Source: Candidatus Coatesbacteria bacterium
Lineage (GTDB): Bacteria; RBG-13-66-14; B26-G2; JAUVZD01
Assembly: GCA_030602715.1 (NCBI GenBank)
Contig: JAUVZD010000001.1
Coordinates: 270,213 to 334,212, forward strand
DNA length: 64,000 bases
Direction of reading: 5' to 3'
Numbering within the stretch: the first letter of the stretch is position 1; each line of letters opens with the position of its first letter. The translations under genes were made by a program, and so were the position numbers. Positions 16,011-63,863 of the stretch are shown here, one piece after another. The notes beneath the pieces were generated by a model, which was not told the origin of the DNA, made no database searches, and saw only the letters and a list, made by a program, of their open reading frames with translations.

Positions 16011-16036
16011 CATTAAAACCGAATAATATAAAAACA

Positions 16037-16738: not shown

Positions 16739-16783
16739 ATTTGCGATCTTTTCAAATTATCCTCATCACAGAAAGGATGCACT

Positions 16784-17371: not shown

Positions 17372-17405
17372 TAGAAGAGTAAAAGCGCCCATCAAAGCAA
17401 CCACG

Positions 17406-17428
17406 AGCCCCCTTTCTCGGGGGCTTTC
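17406..17428 (+). terminator. Rho-independent terminator-like hairpin after paralog 4
   Basis: agccccc-tttctc-gggggct followed by ttc; same stem style as the paralog-2 terminator. Confidence 0.55.
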
Positions 17429-17462
17429 TGCGAAGTTCTTCATCCCAATATCGCTAAAAGGA

Positions 17463-17491
17463 TTGATTGGGCGACTGAATTGTAGTAATCT
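17463..17491 (+). promoter_or_regulatory. Sigma-70-like promoter TTGATT-17-TAATCT upstream of paralog 5
   Basis: TTGATT 17463-17468, spacer ending in GAATTGTAG, TAATCT 17486-17491. Confidence 0.4.
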
Positions 17492-17536
17492 ATCTGCACT
17501 CGCTCTTCAGTTGAAAAATAAGGACCGAACGAGCCA

Positions 17537-22848: not shown

Positions 22849-23229
22849 TCAGTTCTTTTTAGCTTGCTCCATAGCGACCAACTTCCTGAGTAGGTCCCTA
22901 TCCCTCTCGGAAACATCCAAGAAGTGGATAGCTATAGCGTATGGCATAGACGAGTCGTGTCCGTCTTCTGCACACCGCACCACTATCCCCTCGCAGATAA
23001 TCTCCTGTGTCTTCCCCTTGGAGGGTTTGGGGAAAGATACCAGCAAGCGCAACTGCACAATGGTAAATACTTCAAAAGGGACCTCACAGTCGCAATATAG
23101 TCCACTCTCGCTGATATTGCGGGTGATTATGGTGTTTTCGGGGACCTTTTTCAACGGCTCGTGCAGTCCCCCACCCAGGCGGGCATCTACTCTGGAAAAT
23201 CTCCTTCTCTCCTTCTGGTTATCACCCAC
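22849..23229 (-). CDS. PilZ-domain protein (putative c-di-GMP receptor)
   Basis: RRFSR (RxxxR) followed by NISESG ((D/N)xSxxG), the two c-di-GMP-binding PilZ motifs at the expected spacing. Start overlaps the upstream gene stop by 8 nt. Confidence 0.65.
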   Translation of the reverse strand: MGDNQKERRRFSRVDARLGGGLHEPLKKVPENTIITRNISESGLYCDCEVPFEVFTIVQLRLLVSFPKPSKGKTQEIICEGIVVRCAEDGHDSSMPYAIAIHFLDVSERDRDLLRKLVAMEQAKKN

Positions 23230-24277: not shown

Positions 24278-24360
24278 ACGAACCTCTCCGGGATTGCTCC
24301 GATTAATAAAGTATCATAACACAGAGCTACTCAAGATAAAAGTTTTTCCTTTCCAGGCGA

Positions 24361-25254
24361 CTAGTAAAGTATCCAAATGACCGCCAATATCCACAAAACT
24401 ATGGCCGCCATCAAGGGTTTGTCCTTGAGCAGGATACGGCTGGGGGCTCCCCCTTCTTGGCGCACGTAGAGAAGATAGAGATAGCGGAAGATGCCGAAGA
24501 CGACGAAGGGGATGGTATAGACCAGATTAGCGGTAGCCATCTTCTCTATAGTCCGCTCGGAGATGGTGTAGAGGGTATATGACATCACTGTGGATGCGGT
24601 AACCACCGCTATCATACCATCTATAAATTGGGTGGAGTATTCCTTCAGGGCTTTGCGGTGTCTGCCCGCTTTTCCCTCCAGAAGCACAAGCTCGTGCCGC
24701 CTTTTGGCGATTGCCAGGAACAGGGACAGGAAGAAGGTGCATACTAAAAGCCAGGTGGAAAGCTCTACCGTAGGCACCAGTGCCTCCACCCCGGCTATCG
24801 CCCGGAGCACAAAACTTATGGAGATGGTGATAACATCCAGGATGATGACCTTCTTGAGGACCAGCGAATAGGAGATATTGAGGACAAAATATATAACCGC
24901 TACCAACCCAAAGGCGGGGGGCAGAACCAGGAAGGAGGCGCTCAGGCTGACCAGGGTGAGGATAATAAAGACCACGAAAGCCACGACCAGCGGTATCCTC
25001 CCCGAGGGAATGGGACGATGTCTTTTTCGGGGATGCGCCTTATCTGAATCCCTGTCAATAATATCGTTGAAGGTATAGACCGCACCCGAGAGCAGGCAGA
25101 AGACGATGAATCCAAGCACGGCGCTTACCAGATAAGCCCAGTTGAAGATGTTTTTGGAGAAGATGAGTGCGGCGAAGACAACCGCATTCTTGGTCCACTG
25201 GGTAGGACGCACCAGCTCCACAATCCCCTTAACCATAGCCGCTCCGCCTATCAA
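24361..25254 (-). CDS. UbiA-family prenyltransferase, decaprenyl-phosphate phosphoribosyltransferase-like
   Basis: NDIIDRDSDKAHPRKRHRPIPSG is the Asp-rich motif of DPPR-synthase-type UbiA enzymes; about 8 TM helices. ATGA start/stop overlap with the upstream GHL10 gene. Confidence 0.7.
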   Translation of the reverse strand: MIGGAAMVKGIVELVRPTQWTKNAVVFAALIFSKNIFNWAYLVSAVLGFIVFCLLSGAVYTFNDIIDRDSDKAHPRKRHRPIPSGRIPLVVAFVVFIILTLVSLSASFLVLPPAFGLVAVIYFVLNISYSLVLKKVIILDVITISISFVLRAIAGVEALVPTVELSTWLLVCTFFLSLFLAIAKRRHELVLLEGKAGRHRKALKEYSTQFIDGMIAVVTASTVMSYTLYTISERTIEKMATANLVYTIPFVVFGIFRYLYLLYVRQEGGAPSRILLKDKPLMAAIVLWILAVIWILY

Positions 25255-26630
25255 CTCTGAGCCTCCTCCATCTCCTTGCGCAGTATGTTTATCCCCTCTA
25301 TACTGGTCTCTTTCCCGATAAAAACATCGTAACCGCCCTCATCTCCACCGATGAAGACCGGGGCATCGGTCAGCCCCACCATCATCTTGGCGACCATAAT
25401 GGCGTGACGATGGGGCACCGCCTCAACCGCCCGGAGGGAGTAAAGCTTTCCGGTGGAGGTGGAAAGCTCCACCACCGGATAGTAGTATTCTATCGGCACC
25501 TGATAGATGGGTGGGGGAAGGTAGCGGTCAAAGAATTCCTCTCTAAAAAGCTCAAATCGCTTTCCTCCTTCATCAGCCAGCCCACCGTAGGCGAAGACCA
25601 CCACCCCCGGGGATTCCAACTGAATACAGCGTTCCATTCTTTCCACCAACGACTGAGGCGTATCCCACCGCCCCCCACTCCGCTCCAGTATCCCCAACCC
25701 GACCACCACTCTGTTCTTGGGCGCTGCGGACAGGTCAACCTGGGCATATCCGCCCATCACATCTGCGGATTCAGCATAGCACATGGGGATGACAAAATCC
25801 ACCAACTCCTCATCTATCCACAGGGGCCAATCCTGAAAGACCTCCTCCCGTGATGTGCTCAGAGAGCCGAAGACCGCGACGGAGAGGGGAAGACCGGGGC
25901 TTGCCCAATCTATGCCCTGGCGAAGACGCTCTATCAGGTCGGTTATGCAGTCCTGCCGCCACTTGATGAAACCGTCGGGGTTATCCCCGGGACTTGTGTC
26001 GTAAATCTCCCTGAAGCGAGCCACCGAGATGGGACTGTAGCCGAAACCATGCTCATAGCGGATGTAGTCCAGATGGAAGCCGTCCAGGTCATAATTACTG
26101 ATTATGTCCAAAAAGACCCCCGCCAGATACTCATTTACCCCCGGCACCCCGGCATCAAGCCAGTATTGGGAACTCCCGTCCCGGTAGGTGCCGTCTTTTT
26201 TACAGCTCAGCCAATCGGCGGGGTAATGATAATCGTCAAGCGTATCCCCCCTGCCGGTAGCGATATAGACCGTCACCCAGGCGTGCAGGTCCATCCCCAG
26301 ACGATGAGCCTCACGGATAGCCAAATCCAGTGGGTCGTAGTCGTCTCCTCCGCCGGCGATGAAGGAGGAGCGTTTCTCCGGGTTGGTAAAGAGCTCATTG
26401 CTCTTGTTGGGGATGTAGAGGGCGTCGGAGCGATAGCGCACCTCAAGAAAGATGGTATTGAAGTTAGCCGCCCGAATCTGGTGGATGACCTCCACCAAAC
26501 GCTTTGGGGTGGGAAACTCCCAGGCGGGAAGCCAGACCCCGCGCATCTCCCCGATTATCTCCGAGCAAGGTGCCAAGGTAGGCCAGGCAAAAAACAGCAA
26601 TAAGAATACAACTCCTCTAAGTCTCTTCAC
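25251..26630 (-). CDS. Secreted glycoside-hydrolase-like protein (GHL10/YngK-like TIM-barrel), tentative
   Basis: Signal peptide; FNTIFLEVRYRSDALY, LHAWV, GFHLDYIRY resemble the GHL10 family. Call by resemblance only. Confidence 0.45.
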   Translation of the reverse strand: MKRLRGVVFLLLFFAWPTLAPCSEIIGEMRGVWLPAWEFPTPKRLVEVIHQIRAANFNTIFLEVRYRSDALYIPNKSNELFTNPEKRSSFIAGGGDDYDPLDLAIREAHRLGMDLHAWVTVYIATGRGDTLDDYHYPADWLSCKKDGTYRDGSSQYWLDAGVPGVNEYLAGVFLDIISNYDLDGFHLDYIRYEHGFGYSPISVARFREIYDTSPGDNPDGFIKWRQDCITDLIERLRQGIDWASPGLPLSVAVFGSLSTSREEVFQDWPLWIDEELVDFVIPMCYAESADVMGGYAQVDLSAAPKNRVVVGLGILERSGGRWDTPQSLVERMERCIQLESPGVVVFAYGGLADEGGKRFELFREEFFDRYLPPPIYQVPIEYYYPVVELSTSTGKLYSLRAVEAVPHRHAIMVAKMMVGLTDAPVFIGGDEGGYDVFIGKETSIEGINILRKEMEEAQS

Positions 26631-33063: not shown

Positions 33064-34656
33064 ATGGCGGAGCCGAAAAATACAATCGCTTTGGTGAACG
33101 AGAAAGATAAGCCCAAAGAACGCTATATTTCTCTACGCTTACAGATTGCCGCCGCAACCGTCTTGCTAATAGTGGCGACAACCATCACTCTGGGCACTTT
33201 CTCCCTGCGCCATGAACGCCAAGCACTCCACCGCGAGTTCATCGCCCGCATTCTTGCCCAGACCCGCTCAGTGGCGGGGACCAGCTCCGGCTCCATTCTG
33301 CTGGATATAGCGGAAACATATACCCAGCCCCTTGCCCTCAGTACTCTGGAGGAGAACGAGGATTGCATTGATATCACCATCGTGAACAAGGAGAATATTA
33401 TCTACGGGGCAAAAGAGACTTTTCTTCTGGGCAAACCCTACCAACCGGAGCAGGACCTGGCTGCTATTGGGGGGGATTTCGGACAACTCAGCGGTGAGAC
33501 CGTCGCCGAGAAAGGAGACCTGATATATATCAGTGTCCCCATAAGAAAGGGGGAGATGGGAACGATAGGTTACGTCTATGCTTCCTACAGCAGTGCCAAC
33601 CTAACCCATATGCTCACCCTGGCCCGAAACAACCTGATAATTATCTCCCTGATCGTCCTGGTGGTGGGAATATTCGCCGCTTATTTTGTCTCCATGATGC
33701 TGGTAAGTCCGGTGCGCAAGCTGGCAAATGCCGCCCGCCAGGTGGGGATGGGAAACTTTGATGTTACCGTGGAGGCAAAAACACGCAACGAACTGGGGCA
33801 GTTAGCGAACACCTTCAACCGTATGGCAGAGAGTCTGAAAGAAGCCCAGAAGATGATTTTGGAGAAGAACCGCATGGAGCAGGAGCTGACCATCGCCCGC
33901 CAACTGCAGAAGAGCTTCCTGCCCAGCATATTCCCCCACTTGCAGGGGGTGGATATCTATGCCCGTTGCCGCACCGCTCAGGCGGTAGGCGGAGACTACT
34001 ACGATTTCCTGGAGCTGGATGAGGACAACATCGGGCTATTGATAGCGGATATCTCCGGCAAGGGTTTATCCGGTCTCATAATCATGAGCATGGTGCGCAA
34101 TGTTCTCCGCTCGCAAGCCCGCAGGTATCAGTCGCCACGTCGGGCGTTGATAGAGACCAACACCCTGCTCACCCCGGACTTTCAAAAGGGGCGCTTCGTC
34201 ACCGCCTTCCTGGGGACCTACCACCGCCCCACCCGACTGCTCACCTACGCCAATGCCGGACACACTCCCCTGCTCTACTACCGTGCCGATGACAACATCG
34301 TTGCCATGCTGGAGAAATCGGGGCGACCTATAGGTCTCTTCTCCAGCGAGGTCTTTGAAGAGCGCCTGGAGGAAGGACAGCTGGAGCTTTCGGAGAACGA
34401 CCTCATCTTACTCTTCACCGACGGGATAACCGAGGCGATTAACAACGCCGGTCAACTATACGGCGAAAGCCGTCTATTGAAGCTCATCCCCCACCTCAAG
34501 GACCTTGATGCAAAAAGCATAGTGGAGGAGGTCTTCAACAATGTACACCGCTTCCGGGGCAAAGGCGGCACCTTAAGCGACGACATAACTATTATGGTTA
34601 TGAGAACCACAGCCCAAAGTGAGCTGGAAAAGCTCTATACAGCCCAGGAGATATAA
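33064..34656 (+). CDS. Membrane sensor PP2C phosphatase (two TM + periplasmic domain + HAMP + SpoIIE/RsbU-type PP2C)
   Basis: TM1 AAATVLLIVATTITLGTF, TM2 LIIISLIVLVVGIFAAYFV; HAMP (SPVRKLANAARQVGMGNFDVTVEAKTRNELGQLANTFNRMAESL); PP2C motifs VGGDYYDF, LLIADISGKGLSG, FTDGITEA. Confidence 0.85.
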   Translation: MAEPKNTIALVNEKDKPKERYISLRLQIAAATVLLIVATTITLGTFSLRHERQALHREFIARILAQTRSVAGTSSGSILLDIAETYTQPLALSTLEENEDCIDITIVNKENIIYGAKETFLLGKPYQPEQDLAAIGGDFGQLSGETVAEKGDLIYISVPIRKGEMGTIGYVYASYSSANLTHMLTLARNNLIIISLIVLVVGIFAAYFVSMMLVSPVRKLANAARQVGMGNFDVTVEAKTRNELGQLANTFNRMAESLKEAQKMILEKNRMEQELTIARQLQKSFLPSIFPHLQGVDIYARCRTAQAVGGDYYDFLELDEDNIGLLIADISGKGLSGLIIMSMVRNVLRSQARRYQSPRRALIETNTLLTPDFQKGRFVTAFLGTYHRPTRLLTYANAGHTPLLYYRADDNIVAMLEKSGRPIGLFSSEVFEERLEEGQLELSENDLILLFTDGITEAINNAGQLYGESRLLKLIPHLKDLDAKSIVEEVFNNVHRFRGKGGTLSDDITIMVMRTTAQSELEKLYTAQEI

Positions 34657-34680
34657 AAGCATATGCGGAGGATATAGTAA

Positions 34681-35148
34681 ATGCCAAGGGACAATAAGAA
34701 TATTCAGGAATACTCAATTCGGATAGGAAGCAACCCCAAATCGCTGGGACATGCCCGAGACTTCGTGATTCAATTGCTAAAAGAAAGCGGTTTTTCCAAC
34801 GACGAGATAAGCATTCTGGAGCTGGTGACCTATGAGGCTTGTGCCAACTCCATAGAACACGCTTACAGCAATCAACCGGATTTCTATGTAGATTTGAATA
34901 TCCAGATTCGCGGGCGGGAGGTGTTCATCAAAATTGAGGATAGCGGTCAGGAATTCCAACCCGGGGATATCCACCCGCTGGACATCGGCGATCGCATAGA
35001 CCGCCGTGCCAGCAGGGGTATGGGCTTGCCGTTGATGAAGACTTTGATGGATGAGGTGACAATTGAACGCACATTTGACAACCATAATCGCATTACCATG
35101 AGAAAGGATTTCTCCAAAAAAAAGAAAGCGCCTAAAGGAAAAACTTAG
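34681..35148 (+). CDS. RsbW/SpoIIAB-like anti-sigma regulatory factor (GHKL serine kinase)
   Basis: N-box LVTYEACANSIEHAY, G-box RGMGLPLMKTLMDEV; 155 aa; 24 nt after the phosphatase gene. Confidence 0.85.
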   Translation: MPRDNKNIQEYSIRIGSNPKSLGHARDFVIQLLKESGFSNDEISILELVTYEACANSIEHAYSNQPDFYVDLNIQIRGREVFIKIEDSGQEFQPGDIHPLDIGDRIDRRASRGMGLPLMKTLMDEVTIERTFDNHNRITMRKDFSKKKKAPKGKT

Positions 35149-35156
35149 GAGGAATA

Positions 35157-37160
35157 GTGAGAGAGCTGGATATATCTCTGAGTAAAAAAACGGAAGAGGG
35201 AATCTACACCTTTAAGCTGGCCGGGAGTTTGGGGGTAGAGGGCTCCCGGGGACTGACGAAATTGTTTGACGCCTGCCTTAAGGAGAAAGTCTATAGCATT
35301 ATCATTGACCTCTCCCAGGTTGATTTCATCTCCAGCGCCGGGATGGGGGTATTCCTCTCCGTTGTCGGTGAACTGAGAGAACACAATGGGGATATTATCT
35401 TCATGGCTATGCCCGATAAAATCAGAAAGATATTCTCCTCCCTGGATGTTCTGGACTACTTTGAAAACTATAAGAGCGAGGATAAAGCCAGAACCGCTCT
35501 AAGGAAGAAGGGGAAAAAGACAACCGGGGAGTTAGCAAAAACAAAGAAAGCTTTAAGCAAATTAGACCATTTGCAGTTCATCTCCGAATCTACCAAAAGT
35601 ATCTCCCTGGAGAAGAAAAGCGTTCTGGTCATCCCCTCCATCATGGAATCGCTGATGAGCCACCTGGATGTGGAAGATTTACTCTTTGTACCCATCTCCA
35701 TACCACTGCGCCAGGAGTTTGACTTCATCAGTCTGGGCCGGGGCAATCTGCGGGAGATAACCGTGGAGGAGACCCAGCAGTTAAGCTCTCTTTTAAAAAA
35801 CTACCAGGCGCCGGTTCAGCTGTCCGAACTACCCGATGTCTATGAGGATATCTATGTAAAGCTGGCTCGTACCGGCTGTGAATTGGTAGTGCCCATCTTC
35901 TCCGAGGAGATCCTCTCCTCCCTGCTCTTTTTAGGGCAAAGGGGGTTGGGAGCCCGCTATCAAAAAGAAGACATGCTCATGCTCCAAACCATAGCCGGAA
36001 TGCTCGGCTCCGCCATTCAAAACCATCGTCTGCAGAAGCGCCTGGATGATGCAGTCTCCTCCGAAGAGCTGGAGAACGCCCATGTTCGCCTGGAGAGGAA
36101 GGTGCAAGAACTGGAGACCTTGTTCATCGTCAGCCAACAACTGGGCAGTTCCATGGAAGTTGATGAACTGCTCAACAACTTCCTGGTGGTAACTGTGGGG
36201 CAGATGGGCACCAACAAAGGGCTTATCTTCCTCACCGACGAGGGGGATTACAATCTGACCTGCAAAGCCTTCAAGGGTCAATTCGCCCGCATTCCCTTGG
36301 ATGTCACCCTCCCCATAGACGGCAAGCTGGTCCAGTTGGTATCAAGCGCAAATCACCCCATTAAGGCGCACGACAAAGATGTCTTCAACAAGTTGAGTTC
36401 CGACGAGCGTAAGTTCATCACCGACAACGACATCTCCCTTCTGGGAGCCATCAAATATAAAGGCGAGCTTCGGGGCTTGAACGCTGTAGGTTCCAAGGTG
36501 AGCAAGAAGGAGTATACTACCGAGGATTTTGACCTCTTCTCCATCCTCAATTTCCAGGCAGCCACCGCCCTGGAGAATGTCAAACTCTTTGACAAGCTGA
36601 AAAATGTTTACAGCGGGGTGATGAGGGCTCTGGTGACCGCACTGGAAGCGAAAGACCCCCACTACAAGGGACATACCGAACGGGTCACCCGCCTATCCGC
36701 CCAGATGGGGGAAAAGTTGGGTTTCAATAATGAGAGACTGCGCAACCTCATCTTCGGCGCTGTATTGCACGATATCGGTAGAGTGGGGGTGCGGGAGTCC
36801 ATCCTCAATAAGGTTGAACCCCTGACCGAAGAGGAGAAGGAGGAACTCATGCGCCATCCGGTCATCGGCACGGAGATACTCAAGGAGGTTGAATTCTTCA
36901 AGGGTTCATTGGCTATAGTCCGCAACCATCACGAGAACTACGACGGTAGCGGCTATCCCGATGGTCTCGCCGGTGAATCCATCCCCATTGAAGTGCGCAT
37001 CGTGACCCTAGCCAACGCCTACGAGGCGATGACCTCCACCCGCCGTTATCGGGGCGCATTGACCAATAAAGAGGCTATAGAGGAGATCCGCAGAAATGCA
37101 GGCACCCAGTTTGACCCCAACCTGGCAAAAATCTTCATCAACCTGATATCCAGCAAGTAA
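35157..37160 (+). CDS. STAS (anti-sigma-antagonist-like) - GAF - HD-GYP fusion protein (putative phosphorylation-controlled c-di-GMP phosphodiesterase)
   Basis: N-terminal STAS with phospho-acceptor context IIIDLSQVDFISSAGMGVF; central GAF-like region; C-terminal HD-GYP with KDPHYKGHTERV, LHDIGRVGV (HD) and HHENYDGSGYPDGL (GYP). Confidence 0.85.
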   Translation: MRELDISLSKKTEEGIYTFKLAGSLGVEGSRGLTKLFDACLKEKVYSIIIDLSQVDFISSAGMGVFLSVVGELREHNGDIIFMAMPDKIRKIFSSLDVLDYFENYKSEDKARTALRKKGKKTTGELAKTKKALSKLDHLQFISESTKSISLEKKSVLVIPSIMESLMSHLDVEDLLFVPISIPLRQEFDFISLGRGNLREITVEETQQLSSLLKNYQAPVQLSELPDVYEDIYVKLARTGCELVVPIFSEEILSSLLFLGQRGLGARYQKEDMLMLQTIAGMLGSAIQNHRLQKRLDDAVSSEELENAHVRLERKVQELETLFIVSQQLGSSMEVDELLNNFLVVTVGQMGTNKGLIFLTDEGDYNLTCKAFKGQFARIPLDVTLPIDGKLVQLVSSANHPIKAHDKDVFNKLSSDERKFITDNDISLLGAIKYKGELRGLNAVGSKVSKKEYTTEDFDLFSILNFQAATALENVKLFDKLKNVYSGVMRALVTALEAKDPHYKGHTERVTRLSAQMGEKLGFNNERLRNLIFGAVLHDIGRVGVRESILNKVEPLTEEEKEELMRHPVIGTEILKEVEFFKGSLAIVRNHHENYDGSGYPDGLAGESIPIEVRIVTLANAYEAMTSTRRYRGALTNKEAIEEIRRNAGTQFDPNLAKIFINLISSK

Positions 37161-37819: not shown

Positions 37820-39067
37820 ATGCGCCGTTCTCTCATCACAACCGCCCTCCTGCTCCTCTCCCTGACCGCAGTAAGTGCGGGTCAGACTATTGACACCATG
37901 GATGTCCTCTCCACAGCCGAGGAAGTGGTTGGATATGAGAAAATCTCCGACAGGTCTCCACGAGATGTCTTCGCCACCGCCGATGACGTGGCGGTCTTCT
38001 ATAGCAACCCAGATGCGGTCATGGATACTATCGGCGTCTATGAGGATTTCATATACCGGAAATATGGTGTTGTTTCTGGAGATGAGGTAATCTACTCCCT
38101 GGGCGAGAAGGATGACCTTATGGAGGTCTATATCGCAGAGCTGAAAAACGCCGAGTCAGAGGAGCACCGCTGTGTCATCCTCACATATCACCGTTTTGAG
38201 CCCTTCCCCCGAAACGCCTACGAGGTCTCCCCGGCGGTCTTTGACCAGCAGATGGCATACATCGCCGAGAACGGCTACACAGTAATATCATTGGACCAAC
38301 TCCTGGAGGCAATCTATCTTCAGGACCCTGACCTGCTACCGGAAAATTCGGTGGTCATCACCGTGGACGACGGCTTCCGTTGTTTCCTGACCCGGGCGGT
38401 GCCCATCCTTCAAAAATACGGCTTCACCGCCACCCTCTTCGTCTATACCGCATACGTCAATGCCGGTGGTCGCTCCCTCACCTGGGACGAACTGCGCCTG
38501 GTAGAGAGTATGGGCTTCTCCGTTGAGTGCCACTCCTATACCCATCCCAACTTCAACAACTTTAAAAAATACGGCTCCATCAAAGGCTCCTACAACCAGT
38601 TCGCCTACCACGAACTGCTGGACTCAAAGAAGTTGATTGAGAAGAACCTGGAGAAAGAGGTCAAGTTCTTCTGCTGGCCCTATGGGGAGTTAAACGACTA
38701 CGCCATGCACCTGGCAATCAAGTGCGGTTATGAGAGCACGGTGACGGTCAAGGGGGGAGCAGTGGGGCTCAAATCCAACCCCCTATACCTCAATCGCTTC
38801 GGTGTCTATTCCAAGACTACTATGGAGACCTTTAAAAAGCGCCTGGAGGGAAAGATAGTCTATCAGTATGAAGAGGACAAAGGAACCTACTTCAGTGATA
38901 AATATTACGGCATCACCACCCACTTCTACAAGTTCCCCGAAGAGCTACCACCAGCGGCGGACATAGACGCCTTGTGGGACGCCATCTTTGAGGAGGAAGA
39001 GATTGACCTATCGCCTGCGGAAGGGGAGGTGCCGCCGGGTTTTGAGGGTGAACTCATCCTTGAATAA
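37820..39067 (+). CDS. Secreted polysaccharide deacetylase (CE4/NodB-homology) family protein
   Basis: Signal peptide; VVITVDDGF (NodB motif 1), ECHSYTHPN (His-His metal motif), FFCWPYGE. Confidence 0.8.
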   Translation: MRRSLITTALLLLSLTAVSAGQTIDTMDVLSTAEEVVGYEKISDRSPRDVFATADDVAVFYSNPDAVMDTIGVYEDFIYRKYGVVSGDEVIYSLGEKDDLMEVYIAELKNAESEEHRCVILTYHRFEPFPRNAYEVSPAVFDQQMAYIAENGYTVISLDQLLEAIYLQDPDLLPENSVVITVDDGFRCFLTRAVPILQKYGFTATLFVYTAYVNAGGRSLTWDELRLVESMGFSVECHSYTHPNFNNFKKYGSIKGSYNQFAYHELLDSKKLIEKNLEKEVKFFCWPYGELNDYAMHLAIKCGYESTVTVKGGAVGLKSNPLYLNRFGVYSKTTMETFKKRLEGKIVYQYEEDKGTYFSDKYYGITTHFYKFPEELPPAADIDALWDAIFEEEEIDLSPAEGEVPPGFEGELILE

Positions 39068-53714: not shown

Positions 53715-54443
53715 CTACCTATTGAATATCTCCTGCACAAAGTATATCAAGAAGCGCGCAGTGTCCATAACCACATTTATCTTGCTCTGCTCCTCACCGG
53801 TATATACCGTTTCTATCGGAGTGTTGCCGATGCGGTAACCGAGGCGGGAGGCTTTGAAGAGTAGTTCTGCCTCCAGCTCAAAGCCTCGCTTGGTGAAGGT
53901 CATCCCGTTCACCACCCGGGTGGCTATCCCCCGATAGCCGTTCTGGCTGTCCGGGATATACTGCCCGGCGATCAGAGAGATGACCAGGGAGGTGCTCAGG
54001 TTGCTGAAGCGCCTTTCCAGGGGCATCCCGCTCAGGTCAGCCATGCGGTTTCCCAGCACCACATCGTAGCCACGCTCCAGCTGGGCGACGAACTGGGGGA
54101 TATGCTTGGGCGGGTGCTGACCGTCGCCATCCAGGGTGATAATATATTCCACCCCGCACTCCTGCGCCCAGCGGAAACCCCGTTCCAGCGCCGCTCCCTT
54201 GCCCATATTTCTCGACTGGGAGAGGACCACCGCCCCCGCTTGTCGTGCTTTCCGGGCGGTCCCATCCACAGAGCCGTCGTCTACCACAACCACATAGTCC
54301 ACCAGCGGAAGGCACTGCGCAACCACATCCGCCACCTTCCGCTCCTCGTTGTAGGCGGGAATAAGAGCCATCACAACGGGTCTGGAAACGCTTTCTTGCA
54401 GGAGCATGGTCCTAATTTTAGCCTCCATTTTTCGCAATGTCAA
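53715..54443 (-). CDS. Glycosyltransferase family 2 (DPM1/GtrB-like)
   Basis: MALIPAYNEE, VVVDDGSVDGT, IITLDGDGQHPP (DxD region) are the GT-A fold signature. Confidence 0.85.
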   Translation of the reverse strand: MTLRKMEAKIRTMLLQESVSRPVVMALIPAYNEERKVADVVAQCLPLVDYVVVVDDGSVDGTARKARQAGAVVLSQSRNMGKGAALERGFRWAQECGVEYIITLDGDGQHPPKHIPQFVAQLERGYDVVLGNRMADLSGMPLERRFSNLSTSLVISLIAGQYIPDSQNGYRGIATRVVNGMTFTKRGFELEAELLFKASRLGYRIGNTPIETVYTGEEQSKINVVMDTARFLIYFVQEIFNR

Positions 54444-54543
54444 GGACTGTAACCTTTAGCAACCAGTAATAACTTGATTTTTTCACCGCACTGTGGTAAG
54501 ATATTGAGTTGAAAAATAGATTTCAGTTGGAGGTTTCTGAGGA

Positions 54544-55194
54544 GTGTTCAACCGATTCATCTTGGCAATTGTTCTGACGGGTGTTTTTTTTGTAACTCCC
54601 GCCCAGGCCAGGTATGTCATCGGTGTGGATGATATACTTTATATACAGCTCTATGGTGACCCCTCCATGACCGGTCACTGGGAGGTGCGGGAGGACGGCA
54701 ACATCAAATATCCCCTGCTGGGTGAGGTAAAATCCGCCGGCTACACCCTAAGCGAATTCAACGACTCGCTCACCGAAAAACTAAAAAAATACTATCAGGA
54801 CCCCCAGGTAACCGTAACCGTTGGCACCTACGGTAGCTGTAAGGTCTTCGTCCTCGGTCAGGTTGCCCGACCGGGTGTATATTACTACAAGCGGGAGGCT
54901 TCGGTCCTTGAGATTTTACTCCTCGCCGGAGGAGCGCTGGATTCCGGCAAGAAGAGTTCGGTGGTGGTGATCCGCCAGTTGGAATCCACCCCACAAATTA
55001 TGCGGGTCAATATTGATAAGGTGATAGACGAGGGGCTGGTCGCGCTAAACATACCGGTTAGACCACATGATATCGTCTTTGTGCCCAAGACATTCATAAC
55101 CAACTTAAATGATTTCCTGAACAAGATATATCCCTCCTTACGCACTTTTATGACCATAAACAGCATCTATCGCATGGAATGGACCCGTCCGTAA
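54544..55194 (+). CDS. Polysaccharide export protein (Wza/OPX family, short form)
   Basis: Signal peptide; Poly_export motif YVIGVDDILYIQLYGDP..YPLLGEVKSAGYTLSEF; SLBB-like VFVLGQVARPGVYYY. GTG start with RBS ggagg. Confidence 0.8.
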   Translation: MFNRFILAIVLTGVFFVTPAQARYVIGVDDILYIQLYGDPSMTGHWEVREDGNIKYPLLGEVKSAGYTLSEFNDSLTEKLKKYYQDPQVTVTVGTYGSCKVFVLGQVARPGVYYYKREASVLEILLLAGGALDSGKKSSVVVIRQLESTPQIMRVNIDKVIDEGLVALNIPVRPHDIVFVPKTFITNLNDFLNKIYPSLRTFMTINSIYRMEWTRP

Positions 55195-55209
55195 CACCTT
55201 CATTCTACC

Positions 55210-57573
55210 ATGAATAAAATTCTTGACAAGCATACCACCTTTCAGGATTATATCCAGATCTTCGTTAAGCGGCGCTGGTTGCTACTGGCTATCTTTCTGG
55301 GGGTTACCGCCATCGGGGCTTTCCTCAGCCTGCGAATGACCTCCATCTACAGCGCCACCACCACCATCCGGGTGGAGAAGAAACCCAGCATAATCTCAGC
55401 GTTAATGTATTATTACATGTGGGACCCCAATTTCTTTGACACCGAAGTCGCCTTCATCAAAAGCCGAAGCCTCTCAATGCGGGTGGTCAACCACCTGAAA
55501 TCAGCATACCAGACCGACCCACCCGTATGGAAGAAGAGCTACCTTGCCGATTTCACCCTGGAATTGTCCGTCCTCCCCGGGCAGTATACTTTACTAGTGG
55601 AGGATGAGGAGGGAAACTTCGTTGTCAAGGATTCCAGCGGTGCCACTATAGGAAGTGGAAAAAACTACGAGGAGTTTTCCCGTATGGGAATCTCCTTCAC
55701 CCTGAAACACCCCGAACCCCGCAAGGGTCTTTCCTGCAAGATAAATATAGACAACTTCGCCGCAAAGGTTGACGGCCTGCGAGCCAGTATTACCGCAAAA
55801 CCGATGAGGAATGTGAATATTATTGAGGTGCAGGTGTTGGGCAACAACCCCATTAAAGTGGCTAATCTAGCCAATGTCGTCGCAGAACAATACATCATTG
55901 AAAGCCAGCAAGCCAAGACCCAGCAGGTTACCGCCACCCGTCTGTTCATTGAGGAACAAATGAACATAATAAACACCCAGCTGGTGGAGCTGGAGGATGC
56001 CATCAGGGACTATAAGGAGAAGGAGGGGGTGGTTGACATATCGCAAAAGGCAAATTTCCTCATCCAGGAAATCGGCGACTATGAAAGACTGAAGGCGTCA
56101 AGCGAGATAGACCTGTTTATCGCCGAATCTGAACTAAACCGCATTCATTCCGCTTTGAGTAGTGATGGCGGTTCTCTAGAATCTTATATGGATGTATATT
56201 CCTCCCCCTATCTTTTGCAAAGCAGTAGGTATATCAACTTCTACGCTAATATGCAGGCTCTATACGAGGAGCGGAAGAGACTGCTTGAATTCTACACCGA
56301 AGAACATCCCCAGGTCAAGGAGTTGGACGCTCAGATAAAATCTATTGAAGACGCCTTCATGGACAGCATTCAGGACACACTCATATACGGCGACCTGGGC
56401 ACCAAGAAGGTGGAGCTCACTAATTACATCACTATGCTCAACAAGAAGATTGCCATACTGGATGAAGAGCTCTCCTATATGCCGGAGAAACAACTTATGC
56501 TCCTGCGCCTGGAGCGGGAAGCCAACGCCCAAGCGGAGATTTACAACATGCTCCTCTCCAAATATCAGGAGGCAAAGATAAGCGAAGCGATGAAGGAGAC
56601 CGAAATCCAAATTATGGACCCAGCCACCCCTGCGATGCGCCCCATAAGACCCAATCACTTCACAAATATCGGCTTGGCTGCCGCTCTGGGCTTGATACTC
56701 GCTATCATCACTATCTTAATACTGGAGATTCTGGACAACACCCTCAACACCGCCGAAGAGGTGAAGCGCTTCACCGGTTTACCTCTTGTGGGTCTGATTC
56801 CCAAAGCCCGACAGGGACCCATCCCCAAGATAACCGCCATAAGACGCAGAGACCTCTTGGGACGACGAAGACCCATCTCCATAGATCGGGACAAATATTT
56901 GATGGTTCATCTTGAGCCGAAATCGCCGGAAGCTGAGGCATACCGTTCTCTGCGCACCAACCTGGCAGCGGTCAAAGTTGACGGCATCCTCCAGAGTATC
57001 CTGATCACCAGCTCGGTCCTCTCCGAAGGAAAGACCTCCATAGCTACCAATCTAGCGACAATCTTTGCCATGGCTGGGCGAAAGACCGTATTGGTGGATA
57101 CCGACCTGCGCCGTTCCATCATCCATCACATATTCAGGCAAAAACGTTCCCCGGGACTGACCGAGGTCTGTGTGGAAAAGAAACCTTTGTCCAAAGTGCT
57201 GCGCAAGACCGATATCCCCAATCTCCACATCCTCACCAGCGGATTCCGCCCCCCCAATCCGGCGGAGATACTTGACTCCAAGACAATGGATGACCTTATC
57301 ACCAACCTGCGAAAAAGCTACGAGACGATCATCTTTGACTCCCCACCAATCCTGGCGGTGACCGACCCAATAATCCTGGCAAAGAAAGTGGACGCTACAT
57401 TTATCGTCATCCTCTCCCAATCCACCACATATCATTCCATAAAAATGGCTCACCAGTTCCTCACCAATGCCGGGGTGGAGCCAAACGGCACCATCCTGAA
57501 CGGCATAGACTTCGCCAGAAGCTACGGTCCCTACGGTTACAAATACTACCACTACTACTCCGAGGAAGATTAG
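55210..57573 (+). CDS. Polysaccharide co-polymerase / BY-kinase (Wzc-like chain-length determinant with C-terminal tyrosine autokinase)
   Basis: N-terminal TM + Wzz-like periplasmic coiled-coil region + second TM; C-terminal Walker A (SEGKTSIATNLA), Walker A' (VLVDTDLRR), Walker B (IIFDSPP) and Tyr-rich tail YGPYGYKYYHYY. Confidence 0.85.
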   Translation: MNKILDKHTTFQDYIQIFVKRRWLLLAIFLGVTAIGAFLSLRMTSIYSATTTIRVEKKPSIISALMYYYMWDPNFFDTEVAFIKSRSLSMRVVNHLKSAYQTDPPVWKKSYLADFTLELSVLPGQYTLLVEDEEGNFVVKDSSGATIGSGKNYEEFSRMGISFTLKHPEPRKGLSCKINIDNFAAKVDGLRASITAKPMRNVNIIEVQVLGNNPIKVANLANVVAEQYIIESQQAKTQQVTATRLFIEEQMNIINTQLVELEDAIRDYKEKEGVVDISQKANFLIQEIGDYERLKASSEIDLFIAESELNRIHSALSSDGGSLESYMDVYSSPYLLQSSRYINFYANMQALYEERKRLLEFYTEEHPQVKELDAQIKSIEDAFMDSIQDTLIYGDLGTKKVELTNYITMLNKKIAILDEELSYMPEKQLMLLRLEREANAQAEIYNMLLSKYQEAKISEAMKETEIQIMDPATPAMRPIRPNHFTNIGLAAALGLILAIITILILEILDNTLNTAEEVKRFTGLPLVGLIPKARQGPIPKITAIRRRDLLGRRRPISIDRDKYLMVHLEPKSPEAEAYRSLRTNLAAVKVDGILQSILITSSVLSEGKTSIATNLATIFAMAGRKTVLVDTDLRRSIIHHIFRQKRSPGLTEVCVEKKPLSKVLRKTDIPNLHILTSGFRPPNPAEILDSKTMDDLITNLRKSYETIIFDSPPILAVTDPIILAKKVDATFIVILSQSTTYHSIKMAHQFLTNAGVEPNGTILNGIDFARSYGPYGYKYYHYYSEED

Positions 57574-57578
57574 TAGAA

Positions 57579-58547
57579 GTGAGCCCAGAAAAACCCCCCC
57601 CATTCCCCTTCCAGAACTGTCTGGTGACCGGCGGTGCCGGTTTCATCGGCTCCCATGTCGTTGAACGGTTGCTTGCGCTGGGCTGTGCGGTGCGGGTGAT
57701 AGACGACCTCTCCACCGGGCGGAAGGAGAACCTCGCCCATCTCAAGGGATATGAGTTCATCCAGGGCAGGATTCAAGACAGGGCAACAATGCGTGAGTGT
57801 CTTGCCGACATCCAGGTGGTCTTCCATCTAGCCGCACGCACCTCCGTTCCCCGCTCCTTTGAGGACCCCCAGAAGACCCATCTGGTGAACTCAGGCGCAA
57901 GCCTGCTCATCGCAAAACTTTCTGCGGAGATGGGTGTAAAGGTGCTGGTCTATTCCTCCTCATCATCCATATACGGGGACAAACAAAACCCAGTGAAATC
58001 CGAGCGCATGCGACCGGAACCGAAATCGCCTTACGCCATCTCCAAGCTGGCCGGCGAGCGATACTGCCTCCTTTACGGTGGCGTCTCCCCCCTGAAAGCG
58101 GTCTCCCTGCGCTACTTCAATGTATTCGGTCCCCGCCAGGACCCCTCCTCACCTTACTCTGCGGTGATTCCTCGCTTCATAGAGGCACAGCTTAAGGCAG
58201 AACCCCCGGTCATTTTCGGCGACGGCACCCAGACCCGGGACTTCACCTTCGTGGATAATGTCGTCTCCGCCAATCTGCTTGCTGCTTCCGCTTCCCCTAC
58301 AAAACCACAGGCTTTTAACATAGGCACCGGGGAAAGAACCTCAATCAACCAACTGCTGGGCATCATCCAGTCCCACATTAAATCTCCTCCACCAATGAAG
58401 CCAGAATACCAACCCCCTCGCAAAGGCGATGTCCTCCACTCCCAGGCGAACATCCGCAAGGCAGAACACCTGTTAGGCTACAATCCCCGAGTCTCCTTGA
58501 AGGAAGGCTTGGTGCGAACCATCCGATGGTTTCAGACGCACAGATAG
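57579..58547 (+). CDS. NAD-dependent nucleotide-sugar epimerase/dehydratase (UDP-hexose 4-epimerase-like SDR)
   Basis: Rossmann motif VTGGAGFIGSH; catalytic YxxxK (SPYAISK); extended-SDR layout. Confidence 0.85.
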   Translation: MSPEKPPPFPFQNCLVTGGAGFIGSHVVERLLALGCAVRVIDDLSTGRKENLAHLKGYEFIQGRIQDRATMRECLADIQVVFHLAARTSVPRSFEDPQKTHLVNSGASLLIAKLSAEMGVKVLVYSSSSSIYGDKQNPVKSERMRPEPKSPYAISKLAGERYCLLYGGVSPLKAVSLRYFNVFGPRQDPSSPYSAVIPRFIEAQLKAEPPVIFGDGTQTRDFTFVDNVVSANLLAASASPTKPQAFNIGTGERTSINQLLGIIQSHIKSPPPMKPEYQPPRKGDVLHSQANIRKAEHLLGYNPRVSLKEGLVRTIRWFQTHR

Positions 58548-59609
58548 ATGAACCTGCCGGCAAAAAAATACCAGGAGCATAACACCTCGCCCTCGCCTAT
58601 AAAATTAGGGCAGATAATCTTAAGCTCAGCCCTAAAAAGAACCCCGGCGACGAATATCCCCTGCAACTGGACCGCCGAGCGTCTTGGTGAGGAGAGGGTG
58701 CTATATCTTGCCCTCCGGGCGGATAAAGACGGACACCTCTCCCTGGATACAGCGATCATCTCCAGGCGCAGTGAGTGCGAAAACGAAGCCCTGACCGGAC
58801 TGATGCAGTCTGAGGTGGCAGTCAGGCGCCTGACGAAGCTCCTTTCCGGCAGAGTGGAGTTTATCCTTTTTAAGGGGCTGGCGCTGGCAGATTCGGTCTA
58901 TCCTGCACCCCACCTCCGTCCCTGTGCAGATGCGGACATACTCGCCCATCCCCAAAAGGCGACCGTCCTGGACCGTATTCTACTGGACGCGGGATACAGA
59001 AAATTGCTAAGCTCACTCAGGGGAGGGACTCTTTTCAAGAGTTCCTATCTTGACCCGGATGACTATTATGTAGAGGTCCACTTCCACATCTCCCCGCCCG
59101 ACCGGCGCAAGCCACAAAGTGCTCTGGCGTTTGAAGAGAGCAGATATGAGGGGGGAATCAGGGTATTTTCGGCGGAGATGCATCTTGTTGCCCTCACCCT
59201 CCACGCCGAGAGCCACCATTTTTCCCTGCCCCTGCTCAACTATCTTGATGTGGCTCTCATGGCTATATTCAAACCCTGGGAGCCTGAAAAGCTATACCAA
59301 CTGGTATCCCGCCACCAATGCCTGCGAAGTCTTGCCGTCCTCCTTAGCCGGGCGGAGGAACTGATACCTGAGGATGTGTGGGATGATGAGCTGCGGAGGC
59401 TCTTCGCCATACCCGGCAGACTGAATACCAACCTCATCCGCAGGGTCAGTTCCCGAATATCCACCACCAGGTTCCATCCCCTATTCCCCATCCTGCGTGG
59501 TGCGGTGCTGTTTCTATCCCTCCCTTCGTTCCCCTCATTTTTCAGGTCGCTGGTTACCCGCCTCAGAGGGCAGGATAAGATTCCGACCAATCCTATAATT
59601 AAAGATTGA
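58548..59609 (+). CDS. Hypothetical protein, possibly the uncharacterised nucleotidyltransferase family often found in polysaccharide loci
   Basis: 353 aa; starts 1 nt after the epimerase stop; GLALADSVYPAPHLRPCADADILAHP resembles a pol-beta-type NTase Asp pair context; by resemblance only. Confidence 0.4.
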   Translation: MNLPAKKYQEHNTSPSPIKLGQIILSSALKRTPATNIPCNWTAERLGEERVLYLALRADKDGHLSLDTAIISRRSECENEALTGLMQSEVAVRRLTKLLSGRVEFILFKGLALADSVYPAPHLRPCADADILAHPQKATVLDRILLDAGYRKLLSSLRGGTLFKSSYLDPDDYYVEVHFHISPPDRRKPQSALAFEESRYEGGIRVFSAEMHLVALTLHAESHHFSLPLLNYLDVALMAIFKPWEPEKLYQLVSRHQCLRSLAVLLSRAEELIPEDVWDDELRRLFAIPGRLNTNLIRRVSSRISTTRFHPLFPILRGAVLFLSLPSFPSFFRSLVTRLRGQDKIPTNPIIKD

Positions 59610-61775: not shown

Positions 61776-63119
61776 ATGCCCCTCCGCACAATCGTCATCA
61801 CAGTTTTTTTCCTCTTTTTCATATCCACAGCCCGGGGAGATGAACCGAACCCACCCCCAACACAGGCTGAGGGTGAGGAGACCCTCACCACCTATCCCCA
61901 ACCCCCTGACGATTACGCCGGCTCCATCACCGTCAAAGAGATACGGGTGCGGGGGAACACCTACAGCGACACCTCCACCATAATCAATTACATGACCATA
62001 GATGTGGGCGAGGTATTCGCAGACCAGGGTGGGCTGGAATCGGCTGTGGACAAGAGCCTGCGACGGCTGATGGACACTCAGTTGTTCTCCCTGATTCAAG
62101 TATATGACCTTCCCCGCAGCGACCCCTCGCAGGCGGTCATCTATGTCCTCATCCGGGAGGGCGAGCACTGGTCAATCGGTGGGGACTTCTGGTATGGCAC
62201 CCTGGGACGAAAGAATCTGTTCGGAACCGGCAAGGAGGTGGGCATCACCCTGGGGTTCAACCGTCTCGGCGCATACTATCACGACCCCTATCTGTTCAAC
62301 ACCCCCCTCACCTACAGTCTCTCCCTCCATCACTACCGGGGAAGCAGATACAGCCTGGAGCCCGACGACGGCGAGAATGTGGTGGAGGGCGCATCCTTCT
62401 CCCTCAACCGCACCATTGCCAGATTTGATTTCGGACTCCATCTCTCCGATGACCTCACCCTCGTCGCCAGGTTCAGTGCCGAACATTACTACCCCTATAA
62501 TCAGAGCGAGGGCTTTGACTTCGCCCCTTTCTCCGCCGACACGGTGCACAACAACAACACCCTGGGCGCCTCCCTAACCCTGGACCTGCGGGACACCAAC
62601 TGGAACCCCAATTCGGGTGCTCTCCTCCTTGCCAACTACGAGCGGGGCTTTCCCCGCTTGGGCGGAGACTTCTCCTACGAAAAATACGGCCTGGACGCCC
62701 GCTTCTACCTCCCCATCCCGGTAAGCAGACACACAATCATCGCCTCCCGTCTCTATATACAGAGAGCGGAAGGGGAGACGCCCTACTTCCTCCTTCCCAA
62801 CATCGGCGGGCTGGGCGGCTTGCGAGCCCCCAACTACGGTCATTACACCGCTCCCACCGCACTGCTTGCCTCCCTGGAGCTACGACAACGCCTATTCTCC
62901 CTGCCCCTCTTCGGGGTCTGGTTTGAAGGGGCTTTTTTTGTGGATGTGGGGCGAGCCTTTGAGGAGGGAGAAAAGTTTGAGGTCTCCGAACTGTTGTGGG
63001 CGGTGGGACCCAGCCTGCGCCTGCACATGTTCGCATTCGGCAGGCACAGTGCCCGTCTGGATGTGGGCTTCGGCAGGGAAGGCTACGAGCTATATCTGAC
63101 CTGGGACCATGCTTTTTGA
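61776..63119 (+). CDS. Omp85/BamA-TamA-like outer-membrane protein (single POTRA-like region + beta-barrel)
   Basis: Signal peptide; POTRA-like ITVKEIRVRGNTYSDTSTIINYMTIDVGEVF; barrel region with alternating aromatics and C-terminal aromatic (..YLTWDHAF). Confidence 0.6.
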   Translation: MPLRTIVITVFFLFFISTARGDEPNPPPTQAEGEETLTTYPQPPDDYAGSITVKEIRVRGNTYSDTSTIINYMTIDVGEVFADQGGLESAVDKSLRRLMDTQLFSLIQVYDLPRSDPSQAVIYVLIREGEHWSIGGDFWYGTLGRKNLFGTGKEVGITLGFNRLGAYYHDPYLFNTPLTYSLSLHHYRGSRYSLEPDDGENVVEGASFSLNRTIARFDFGLHLSDDLTLVARFSAEHYYPYNQSEGFDFAPFSADTVHNNNTLGASLTLDLRDTNWNPNSGALLLANYERGFPRLGGDFSYEKYGLDARFYLPIPVSRHTIIASRLYIQRAEGETPYFLLPNIGGLGGLRAPNYGHYTAPTALLASLELRQRLFSLPLFGVWFEGAFFVDVGRAFEEGEKFEVSELLWAVGPSLRLHMFAFGRHSARLDVGFGREGYELYLTWDHAF

Positions 63120-63122
63120 GCT

Positions 63123-63863
63123 ATGAGAATAGACCGCAGACATATACTGCTCCCCTGGATTTTAGTTACCATGTTGGTAATCTTTTTGCCGACTCCGTCC
63201 GGGCTGTATGCCGACGAAGAACCACAAGGCGACGACGACAGCCCCGCTTCAGTGGAGGATGATTCAAGGAATCAGTTCTACCAGCAGGAAGCCTCCGTAA
63301 AGACCAGGCATCCTGAACACCTGCTGGAGGGTATCTTGCTTATGGAGCAAGGAAAAACCGAGGGGAACTGTGAACTGTTGAAAAAGGCGGAGGAGCTGTT
63401 CAAGTCGGCGCTTGAGGAGGACCCGGAGGACGCTTACGCAATGGCATATCTGGGCAACAGCGAGGTGCTTAGAGGGATGTTGGGCGGATTTCTGTCCACC
63501 AAGATTCTGACCATATCCAGAGGATTCAAGCATCTGGATGAGGCAAATAAACTCTGGCCGATGAACCCCCGGATAATGCTCATGACCGCATGGCGGGGTC
63601 TGGAGGCGGACATACTCTACGGTCGCCTGTGGCAATCGGCTGACTACTTCTCTATTTTGGCGGAGGGCTTTGAGGGGGGAAGCGACGCCGGTTGGGTGAG
63701 CGCGGACATCGCTCAACAGGCATATCTGGGGCTGGGCGAGTGTCTATTGCTGTTGGGCGACCTCTACGGGGCACGCTCCTGCTTTATTATCGCCCTGACC
63801 ATAAATCCCGCCACCGAGTGGGGCGGGCGGGCTGAGGAGCTATTGGAGGATACGGAGGGGTAG
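63123..63863 (+). CDS. Hypothetical secreted helical (TPR-like) protein
   Basis: Hydrophobic N-terminus (LPWILVTMLVIFL); acidic linker; helical repeats (AYAMAYLGNSEVL; YLGLGECLLLLGDLYGARSCF). Confidence 0.4.
   Translation: MRIDRRHILLPWILVTMLVIFLPTPSGLYADEEPQGDDDSPASVEDDSRNQFYQQEASVKTRHPEHLLEGILLMEQGKTEGNCELLKKAEELFKSALEEDPEDAYAMAYLGNSEVLRGMLGGFLSTKILTISRGFKHLDEANKLWPMNPRIMLMTAWRGLEADILYGRLWQSADYFSILAEGFEGGSDAGWVSADIAQQAYLGLGECLLLLGDLYGARSCFIIALTINPATEWGGRAEELLEDTEG

Follow-up and report, generated by a model that had tools for sequence, protein, structure and literature searches.

A compact OPX/Wzc polysaccharide export module with a short, tailed OPX protein in a Candidatus Coatesbacteria bacterium

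Gene content and conservation of the export locus

We analyzed a 64-kb window from the genome of a Candidatus Coatesbacteria bacterium (contig JAUVZD010000001.1; all positions are those of the window) and found that positions 53715-59609 encode a real and intact surface-polysaccharide export module. [quoted passage not shown] Using the six-frame list of open reading frames (ORFs) together with Pfam and NCBIfam, we recovered all five genes that an initial annotation of this DNA had placed here, at the same coordinates, and its domain calls hold, with Pfam scores well beyond the curated thresholds. On the minus strand lies a gene for a family 2 glycosyltransferase (GT2) that resembles polyprenyl-phosphate sugar synthases (53715-54443; 242 aa). 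Across a divergent intergenic region (54444-54543, as read from the sequence), four genes follow on the plus strand. The first encodes a short OPX protein (54544-55194; 216 aa) made up of a signal peptide, a D1 domain (Poly_export, or PES), one SLBB domain, and a C-terminal tail. The second encodes a Wzc-like PCP-2a co-polymerase and bacterial tyrosine kinase (BY-kinase), identified by Pfam, TIGR01007, and BLASTP (55210-57573; 787 aa). The last two encode an extended short-chain dehydrogenase/reductase that resembles the nucleotide-sugar 4-epimerases WbgU, WbpP, TviC, and GalE (57579-58547; 322 aa) and a nucleotidyltransferase-fold protein of the PF14907 (NTP_transf_5) family (58548-59609; 353 aa).

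In the ORF list, gaps of 15, 5, and 0 bp lie between the four plus-strand genes, with the PF14907 start directly abutting the stop codon of the epimerase gene, and because they are so tightly packed they look like a single operon. A GGAGG ribosome-binding site is located ~10 nt 5′ of the GTG start of the OPX gene. The locus is flanked by housekeeping genes, with cysS upstream and rplU, rpmA, and obg 3′ of the four-gene run. No Rfam family matched at the locus, a promoter scan of the locus gave a number of sites no higher than the chance expectation, and promoter/terminator and tandem-repeat scans of the region returned nothing notable.

An identical OPX protein is present on six public contigs, including other assemblies of the same species, and the gene order is kept in those other assemblies. 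The order is also kept in a relative whose OPX protein is 69% identical (L005), where cysS is followed by the GT2 gene on the minus strand, then by OPX-Wzc-epimerase-PF14907, and then by rplU, rpmA, obg, a hypothetical gene, an Omp85 gene, and a tetratricopeptide repeat (TPR) gene. Because the whole arrangement is kept in L005, the cassette appears to be a stable part of a housekeeping neighborhood rather than a variable island. Among species representatives, the nearest are metagenome-assembled genomes labelled Coatesbacteria or Zixibacteria, with OPX proteins about 47% and Wzc proteins 32% identical to those described here. In these relatives the OPX gene lies 4-6 kb from the Wzc gene, which is on the opposite strand, and one relative has a Wzy_C gene and a family 9 glycosyltransferase (GT9) gene 4 kb upstream of Wzc. 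One of the Coatesbacteria/Zixibacteria-labelled relatives additionally encodes a type IX secretion sorting domain. In our window, the region past rplU-rpmA-obg encodes an Omp85-family protein (447 aa, weak BamA match) and then a TPR protein (246 aa) on the plus strand at 61776-63863; the same pair is found at 8918-11005 of locus L002 and at 17223-19297 of L005.

The OPX protein and its C-terminal tail

The 216-aa protein had been called OPX-like in the initial annotation, and its domain content agrees with that call. Poly_export (PF02563) scores 78 bits against a cut-off of 28 over residues 19-93, and the D1 domain, which has a short β1-β2 loop, occupies 54598-54822 (Pfam, hhalign). A single SLBB domain at residues 100-180 (54841-55083) is matched by PF10531 at 39 bits and by PF22461 (SLBB_2) at 34 bits. 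A predicted Sec type I signal peptide, read from the sequence, covers residues 1-22 (54544-54609; ...TPAQA/RY), with a hydropathy peak at residue 1 and a helix at residues 3-15 in the AlphaFold2 (AF2) model. Among solved structures, phmmer matched WzaB (9n9a, E=6e-26) and Wza (2j58, E=6e-19), and Foldseek returned these same relatives. The best NCBIfam models are TIGR03027, EpsE, and EpsY. The XrtA/PEP-CTERM models TIGR03027, TIGR03018, and TIGR03007, which are the best for OPX and partial for Wzc, score 115/180, 131/231, and 120/279 against their cut-offs. The TIGR03027 match to OPX stops at residue 184, before the tail, and no exosortase was seen in the window.

Beyond the SLBB domain the protein carries 36 further residues, PKTFITNLNDFLNKIYPSLRTFMTINSIYRMEWTRP (55084-55191), which conservation, AF2, and a register-fixed comparison mark as a candidate outer-membrane-inserting segment of the Wza_C/PslD kind. 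The initial annotation had described OPX as lacking the long C-terminal helix of Wza, a description that we correct: AF2 predicts a helix at residues 188-209, with a predicted local distance difference test (pLDDT) score of about 85-90 for residues 181-200, and the tail is conserved and as amphipathic as the D4 helix of Wza. Counted from the end of the SLBB domain, the tail is 36 aa long here (after ...DIVFV180) and 35 aa long in E. coli K-12 Wza (after ...DVVYV; reference sequence taken from NC_000913). Its hydrophobic moment is 0.28 versus 0.26 for Wza D4, the best angle is 105 degrees in both, and the mean hydrophobicity is equal. The tail consensus PKTFIxNLNDFLxxIxPSLxxYLxxNSIYRxxW is kept in all close homologues (>25).

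We observed related tails after the last SLBB domain in 80 loci from many phyla; these came from an alignment-based GTDB scan whose pattern was taken from the tail start, so the set is biased toward tail-bearing OPX proteins. An earlier GTDB scan with single-protein patterns returned no loci. Among the homologues retrieved alongside tail-bearing ones, those of class-3 type terminate at ...DIVFVPESxF. An exhaustive representative search of the OPX superfamily yielded 30,591 representatives, with a top list that consists mostly of multi-SLBB giants and holds little information on the tail.

The tail was compared with that of K-12 Wza in a register fixed by the SLBB end, with nothing optimised. 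Asn9, Asn13, and Pro17 of the tail fall in register with the Wza tail, and over its first 22 residues the tail reaches a score of 16, where shuffles average ~-20 (p~0.001). In the same test, 60 of 78 diverse tails reach p<0.05 against Wza, and an OPX protein from Cloacimonadales (L060) is intermediate, with p<=2e-4 to each of the tail described here and the Wza tail. The phmmer alignment extends to residue 201, equivalent to position 343 of 2J58, and spans 18/34 Wza_C positions. When the last 78 residues of OPX were searched against the PDB, the top matches were the Wza D3/D4 junction at E~0.5, and in an hhalign comparison of the family profile with E. coli Wza only D1 and D2 aligned.

A 2026 study takes an extended β1-β2 loop, which forms a Tyr-ring gate, as the trait that defines OPX proteins of class 1 (PMC12819527). 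In the OPX protein described here this loop is 11 residues short of the E. coli Wza gating loop, with gaps of 3 and 8 residues at Wza ~104-117 (hhalign), whereas it aligns with class-3 WzaB without gaps and at equal length (phmmer). The loop is thus short and ungated, as in class 3. The three periplasmic rings D1-D3 and the N-terminal lipid anchor of class 1 are also missing, as there is one SLBB domain and no Cys in the leader. Class-3 proteins, on the other hand, end directly after the last SLBB domain, whereas 36 residues follow DIVFV here. The genetic pairing with a PCP that is expected of an OPX protein is present, with Wzc starting 15 bp past the OPX stop codon, and the same pairing is seen in L005. 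Under the scheme of Saidi et al. 2022, class 1 has the layout Poly_export-SLBB(1-14)-Wza_C with at least 10/34 Wza_C positions aligned; the OPX protein described here fits that layout at 18/34 (phmmer), although Wza_C is only weakly detected and the D1 loop resembles that of class 3. What E. coli Wza has and this protein does not are a second SLBB ring, a gating loop in D1, and a lipobox. Judged by its sequence, the protein appears to be a hybrid of class-1 and class-3 traits.

The closest architectural precedent is PslD of P. aeruginosa (PMC13434223), which likewise has two periplasmic rings (D1 plus one SLBB domain) and ends in a membrane segment of ~34 residues, comparable to the 36-residue tail here. 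OPX residues 47-199 align with PslD 83-241, reaching into the PslD membrane segment, in a modest phmmer match (E=3e-12). PslD is paired with the PCP PslE, whose periplasmic arm contacts OPX D1 (PMC13434223), just as the OPX protein here is paired with Wzc. There are also differences. The PslD segment is a parallel β-barrel in a 2026 cryo-EM structure (PMC13434223), whereas AF2 predicts a helix for the tail here; PslD is a lipoprotein, whereas our OPX protein has no lipobox; and Wzc here has both a kinase active site and a tyrosine cluster, neither of which is present in PslE.

The E. coli Wza-Wzc(-Wzb) systems of group 1 capsule and colanic acid share with this locus the order of an OPX gene followed by a PCP-2a BY-kinase gene, and the Wza tail is like the tail here in length, register, and amphipathicity. 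They differ in that the locus described here has one SLBB ring instead of two, no gating loop, lipobox, or wzb, a Wzc periplasmic domain that is longer by 72 aa, and no match to Wza_C. Class-3 WzaB of M. xanthus is the best overall match (9n9a), with a similar size and the same short β1-β2 loop. The class-3 proteins of the WzaB-WzpB and EpsY-EpsX pairs end at ...PESFF after the SLBB domain, are lipoproteins, and are usually encoded beside the gene of an 18-stranded porin (PMC12819527, PMC9601211, PMC9603273); in contrast, the OPX protein here has a tail beyond that end, a type I signal, and no adjacent porin gene. The short group C proteins GumB and HfsD, which are discussed in PMC11845990, are likened to our OPX protein by description only.

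The co-polymerase and its accessory enzymes

Wzc is recognized by the Pfam models GNVR (52 bits), AAA_31 (41 bits), and Wzz (29 bits) and by the NCBIfam model for polysaccharide tyrosine autokinases, TIGR01007, at 168 bits against a cut-off of 108. It is collinear with E. coli K-12 Wzc over its full length (BLASTP, E=2e-47). The periplasmic domain (55333-56667) lies between transmembrane (TM) helices TM1 (residues 23-41) and TM2 (residues 487-505), and the cytoplasmic BY-kinase domain (56917-57570) was delimited by a motif scan and by alignment with E. coli Wzc. It holds an ExxRxxR motif (EAYRSLR, 576-582), Walker A (SSVLSEGKT, 601-609), Walker A′ (VLVDTDLR, 627-634), and Walker B (IIFDSPP, 707-713). 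Within the last 20 residues there are seven tyrosines, at positions 772, 775, 777, 779, 780, 782, and 783 (57523-57558). All of the kinase motifs and the tyrosine cluster align with E. coli Wzc, in line with the full Wzc with Walker motifs and a Tyr-rich tail that the initial annotation had proposed.

The periplasmic domain of Wzc is 445 aa long, versus 373 aa in E. coli Wzc (+72), and the added length falls in the middle of the domain; the E. coli alignment shows a 53-residue insertion near residues 294-346. Periplasmic domains of 443-445 aa are also found in L005, L010, and L088. PslE residues 315-320 are reported to contact the OPX protein, and WzcB residues 298-300 to co-evolve with it (PMC13434223, PMC12819527). 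These contact residues resemble the Wzc insertion in residue number, a match by position number and not by alignment.

The 353-aa protein had been tentatively assigned to a nucleotidyltransferase family, and domain analysis bears this out, with NTP_transf_5 scoring 83.7 bits against a cut-off of 31.2. Its catalytic-type motif K109-G110...D128-x-D130...H178 is intact and invariant in 32 sequences. The AF2 model has a core pLDDT of 80-97, and Foldseek matched it to the nucleotidyltransferase folds of MenT1, ANT(2'')-Ia, LnuA, and TM1012, while a profile search with PF14907 found no sequence relative in the PDB. In four further loci (L008, L010, L088, and L090) the Wzc gene is followed by a PF14907 gene with an overlap of 1 or 4 bp, and the Coatesbacteria-like locus L011 has the same adjacency. 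Two distant family members are found elsewhere. One is located beside a GT2/WecG fusion in a glycan-biosynthesis locus (L089, 8254-11158), and the other beside a radical-SAM/SPASM-PqqD-ScmC cluster that resembles those for peptides synthesized by ribosomes and modified after translation (RiPPs; L091, 5846-11089). Because distant members are found in such glycan and RiPP-like neighborhoods, the family is not Wzc-specific; the tight coupling to Wzc is a trait of this clade, and the family as a whole seems to be a versatile tailoring enzyme. The Wzc-PF14907 pairing provides a concrete genomic context for testing this uncharacterised nucleotidyltransferase family. In Coatesbacteria-like relatives, the pair is flanked by two conserved proteins of ~230 aa and ~326 aa that have no Pfam match and no homologue in the window (L088 6938-7621 and 11025-12005; L090 3199-3900 and 7295-8275; L008 10590-11579 and 14958-15659).

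The protein annotated as a UDP-sugar epimerase is confirmed as a member of the epimerase family, at 206 bits for Pfam Epimerase. Its top NCBIfam model is TviC, below the cut-off of that model, and among solved structures WbgU, WbpP, and Thermotoga GalE come closest to it; it is putatively a UDP-hexose/HexNAc-type 4-epimerase. The divergent glycosyltransferase (Glycos_transf_2, 85.5 bits) is closest to the polyprenyl-phosphate sugar synthases DPMS, ArnC, GtrB, PpgS, and AglJ, and not to transferases that build repeat units or extend polymers processively. Its nearest solved structures are DPMS (5mlz), ArnC, and GtrB, and its top NCBIfam models, PpgS, AglJ, and dolichyl-P hexose transferase, each score under the cut-off. 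A membrane anchor is expected of this subgroup, but a hydropathy screen found no TM helix in the protein. Gene calls in other assemblies start the protein 12 codons later, at M13, giving 230 aa, and this start (54407) is likely the true one.

Polymer export, alternative readings, and the rest of the window

In our reading, the region encodes a module for export and its regulation within a surface polysaccharide pathway that is PCP/OPX-dependent (Wzx/Wzy-type), in an uncultured diderm host, and we give this explanation as a whole a probability of about 0.75. In such a pathway, GT2 would probably make a polyprenyl-phosphate-linked monosaccharide donor, and the epimerase would provide a nucleotide-sugar precursor. 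The OPX protein would be exported by Sec and serve as a minimal outer-membrane exporter, with its D1/PES ring docking on the co-polymerase and its tail inserting in the outer membrane as an oligomeric pore. The long periplasmic domain of Wzc would reach this two-ring exporter, so that the longer arm may compensate for the ring that OPX lacks. Cycles of Wzc autophosphorylation should govern the assembly and export of the polymer, and PF14907 would act as a cytoplasmic nucleotidyltransferase-fold enzyme co-transcribed with Wzc. The presence of a conserved OPX/BY-kinase module among housekeeping genes of a candidate-phylum bacterium suggests that a core surface polysaccharide is probably made.

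Several observations weigh against this explanation. The nearest overall relatives of OPX are class-3 or short proteins (WzaB 9n9a, TIGR03027, EpsE, and EpsY), the Tyr-ring gating loop is missing from its D1 domain, and its leader, as read from the sequence, has neither a lipobox nor a Cys. Wza, PslD, and WzaB all require lipidation, unlike this OPX protein. For the tail, the Pfam Wza_C model matched none of 23 family members at E<=10, and hidden Markov models of the tail only, built from the close family or from the 78 diverse tails, scored E. coli Wza no better than shuffles in a free search. Because these searches were negative, homology of the tail to Wza_C depends on the register-fixed tests and the one intermediate; the similarity appears weak in sequence and confined to the fixed register, and we do not claim secure homology. 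Finally, the window encodes no Wzx, Wzy, or initiating phosphoglycosyltransferase detectable by Pfam (ORFs of at least 150 aa) or by a hydropathy screen, and no low-molecular-weight protein tyrosine phosphatase (Wzb) or PHP phosphatase detectable by Pfam and signature scans. The initial annotation had likewise seen no Wzx, Wzy, or Wzb. Because flippase, polymerase, initiating transferase, and phosphatase were not seen in the window, it is the PCP-2a/OPX pair alone that points to the pathway type. The polytopic membrane proteins of the window number only three, namely an LPG_synthase_TM protein, a UbiA protein, and a Na/Ca exchanger, and none belongs to a Wzx, Wzy, or initiating-transferase family. 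It is plausible that these partners are encoded elsewhere in the genome, because dispersed polysaccharide clusters are documented in M. xanthus (PMC9603273).

The manner in which the polymer would cross the outer membrane can be read in two ways. By analogy with the D4 helix of Wza or the C-terminal segment of PslD, the tail may insert itself into the outer membrane and form an oligomeric pore, either an α-barrel or a β-barrel, which we consider somewhat better than an even bet. Alternatively, OPX could be a purely periplasmic class-3 protein whose tail docks on a separate outer-membrane β-barrel porin, as in EpsY-EpsX and WzaB-WzpB, a serious reading but in our view a doubtful one. It draws on the class-3 and short OPX proteins that head the sequence and structure matches, on the class-3-like β1-β2 loop, on the failure to detect Pfam Wza_C, and on the contact that WzaB makes with its porin via its C-terminal residues (PMC12819527). 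The window also offers two β-barrel candidates, one at 7217-8821 and the other the Omp85-like ORF (61776-63119), whose synteny extends to L002 and L005. However, class-3 proteins stop 1-3 residues past the SLBB domain, whereas the OPX protein here has 32 more that are conserved, helical, and amphipathic, and its tail shows in-register similarity to that of Wza. There is also no porin gene in or beside the operon, and neither β-barrel candidate has informative PDB relatives: the Omp85-like ORF is weakly BamA-like, and the other barrel has no relative in the PDB.

Under the preferred reading of a self-inserting tail, a short OPX protein that databases score as Poly_export plus SLBB may still bear a Wza-type C-terminal membrane segment, and neither OPX length nor Pfam architecture alone is a safe basis for deducing class-3 status or a requirement for a porin. 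A wider proposal would hold that minimal, non-lipidated, ungated OPX proteins in several phyla form two-ring pores of their own, which would blur the split between class 1 and class 3, with the Wzc arm compensating and, in this lineage, PF14907 coupled as a new BY-kinase accessory; we judge this combination unlikely. In our assessment the locus is mildly interesting, for its hybrid mini-OPX with a Wza-type tail and for the clade-conserved pairing of Wzc with PF14907.

The role of PF14907 could also be more specific, as a dedicated BY-kinase regulator that, for example, nucleotidylates Wzc or a partner and so replaces the missing Wzb. The gene does adjoin Wzc, abutting or overlapping, in this lineage as well as at five Coatesbacteria-like loci, the window encodes no tyrosine phosphatase, and the catalytic residues of the nucleotidyltransferase are intact. 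The distant members that occur without Wzc in the glycan-biosynthesis (L089) and RiPP-like (L091) neighborhoods argue against such a role, as do the structural neighbors of PF14907, which act on small molecules or tRNA, and we regard a dedicated regulator as quite improbable. That the cassette is a non-functional remnant of a bigger polysaccharide locus, as the lack of wzx, wzy, initiating transferase, and phosphatase genes within 64 kb and its position wedged between cysS and ribosomal protein genes might suggest, is very improbable, since all ORFs are intact with complete catalytic motifs, the arrangement is kept in L005 (69% identical OPX) and in several assemblies, dispersed clusters are known in M. 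xanthus (PMC9603273), and one relative has a Wzy_C gene 4 kb from Wzc.

The initial annotation had suggested that a PilZ protein and a polysaccharide deacetylase encoded elsewhere in the window may act on the same polymer. Both genes exist, but we found nothing that connects either of them with this cassette. PilZ (22849-23229, minus strand; PF07238, 45.6 bits) is encoded by the last gene of a GHL10-UbiA-LPG_synthase_TM operon at a distance of 30 kb, and the deacetylase (37820-39067) is encoded after a TPR protein in another operon, 16 kb off. The apparent operon that includes PilZ (22849-26630, minus strand) encodes a GHL10 glycoside-hydrolase-like protein, a UbiA prenyltransferase, a flippase-like LPG_synthase_TM protein, and the 126-aa PilZ protein; it may represent a cyclic-di-GMP-controlled lipid/glycan pathway that is separate from the export cassette. 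The TPR protein and the deacetylase lie after a partner-switching-type signalling module at 33064-37160 on the plus strand, which consists of a Cache/HAMP/SpoIIE (PP2C) phosphatase, an HATPase_c_2 kinase, and a STAS-GAF-HD protein.

Additional glycan-related genes are scattered over the window and encode a DegT aminotransferase, a GlmU-like protein, AsnB, a GalT-like protein, and a MurA/EPSP-family protein. A single run on the minus strand at 8892-14679 contains genes for a GlmU-like nucleotidyltransferase/acetyltransferase, an 867-aa protein with one TM helix and no Pfam match, and an AsnB-type amidotransferase, and may be a sugar-modification operon. At 4660-8821 on the plus strand, an 860-aa TPR/YfiO-like gene overlaps a 534-aa ORF with a weak match to TonB-dependent-receptor barrels, a pair reminiscent of split TPR-plus-porin export proteins (PgaA/BcsC-like). 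Five consecutive paralogous ORFs of 165-195 aa at 14875-18061 (plus strand) share lipoprotein-like hydrophobic leaders and invariant H-Y, W, A-Y, and G residues and have no Pfam match; the arrangement suggests a tandem array whose products are small and either secreted or located in the envelope.

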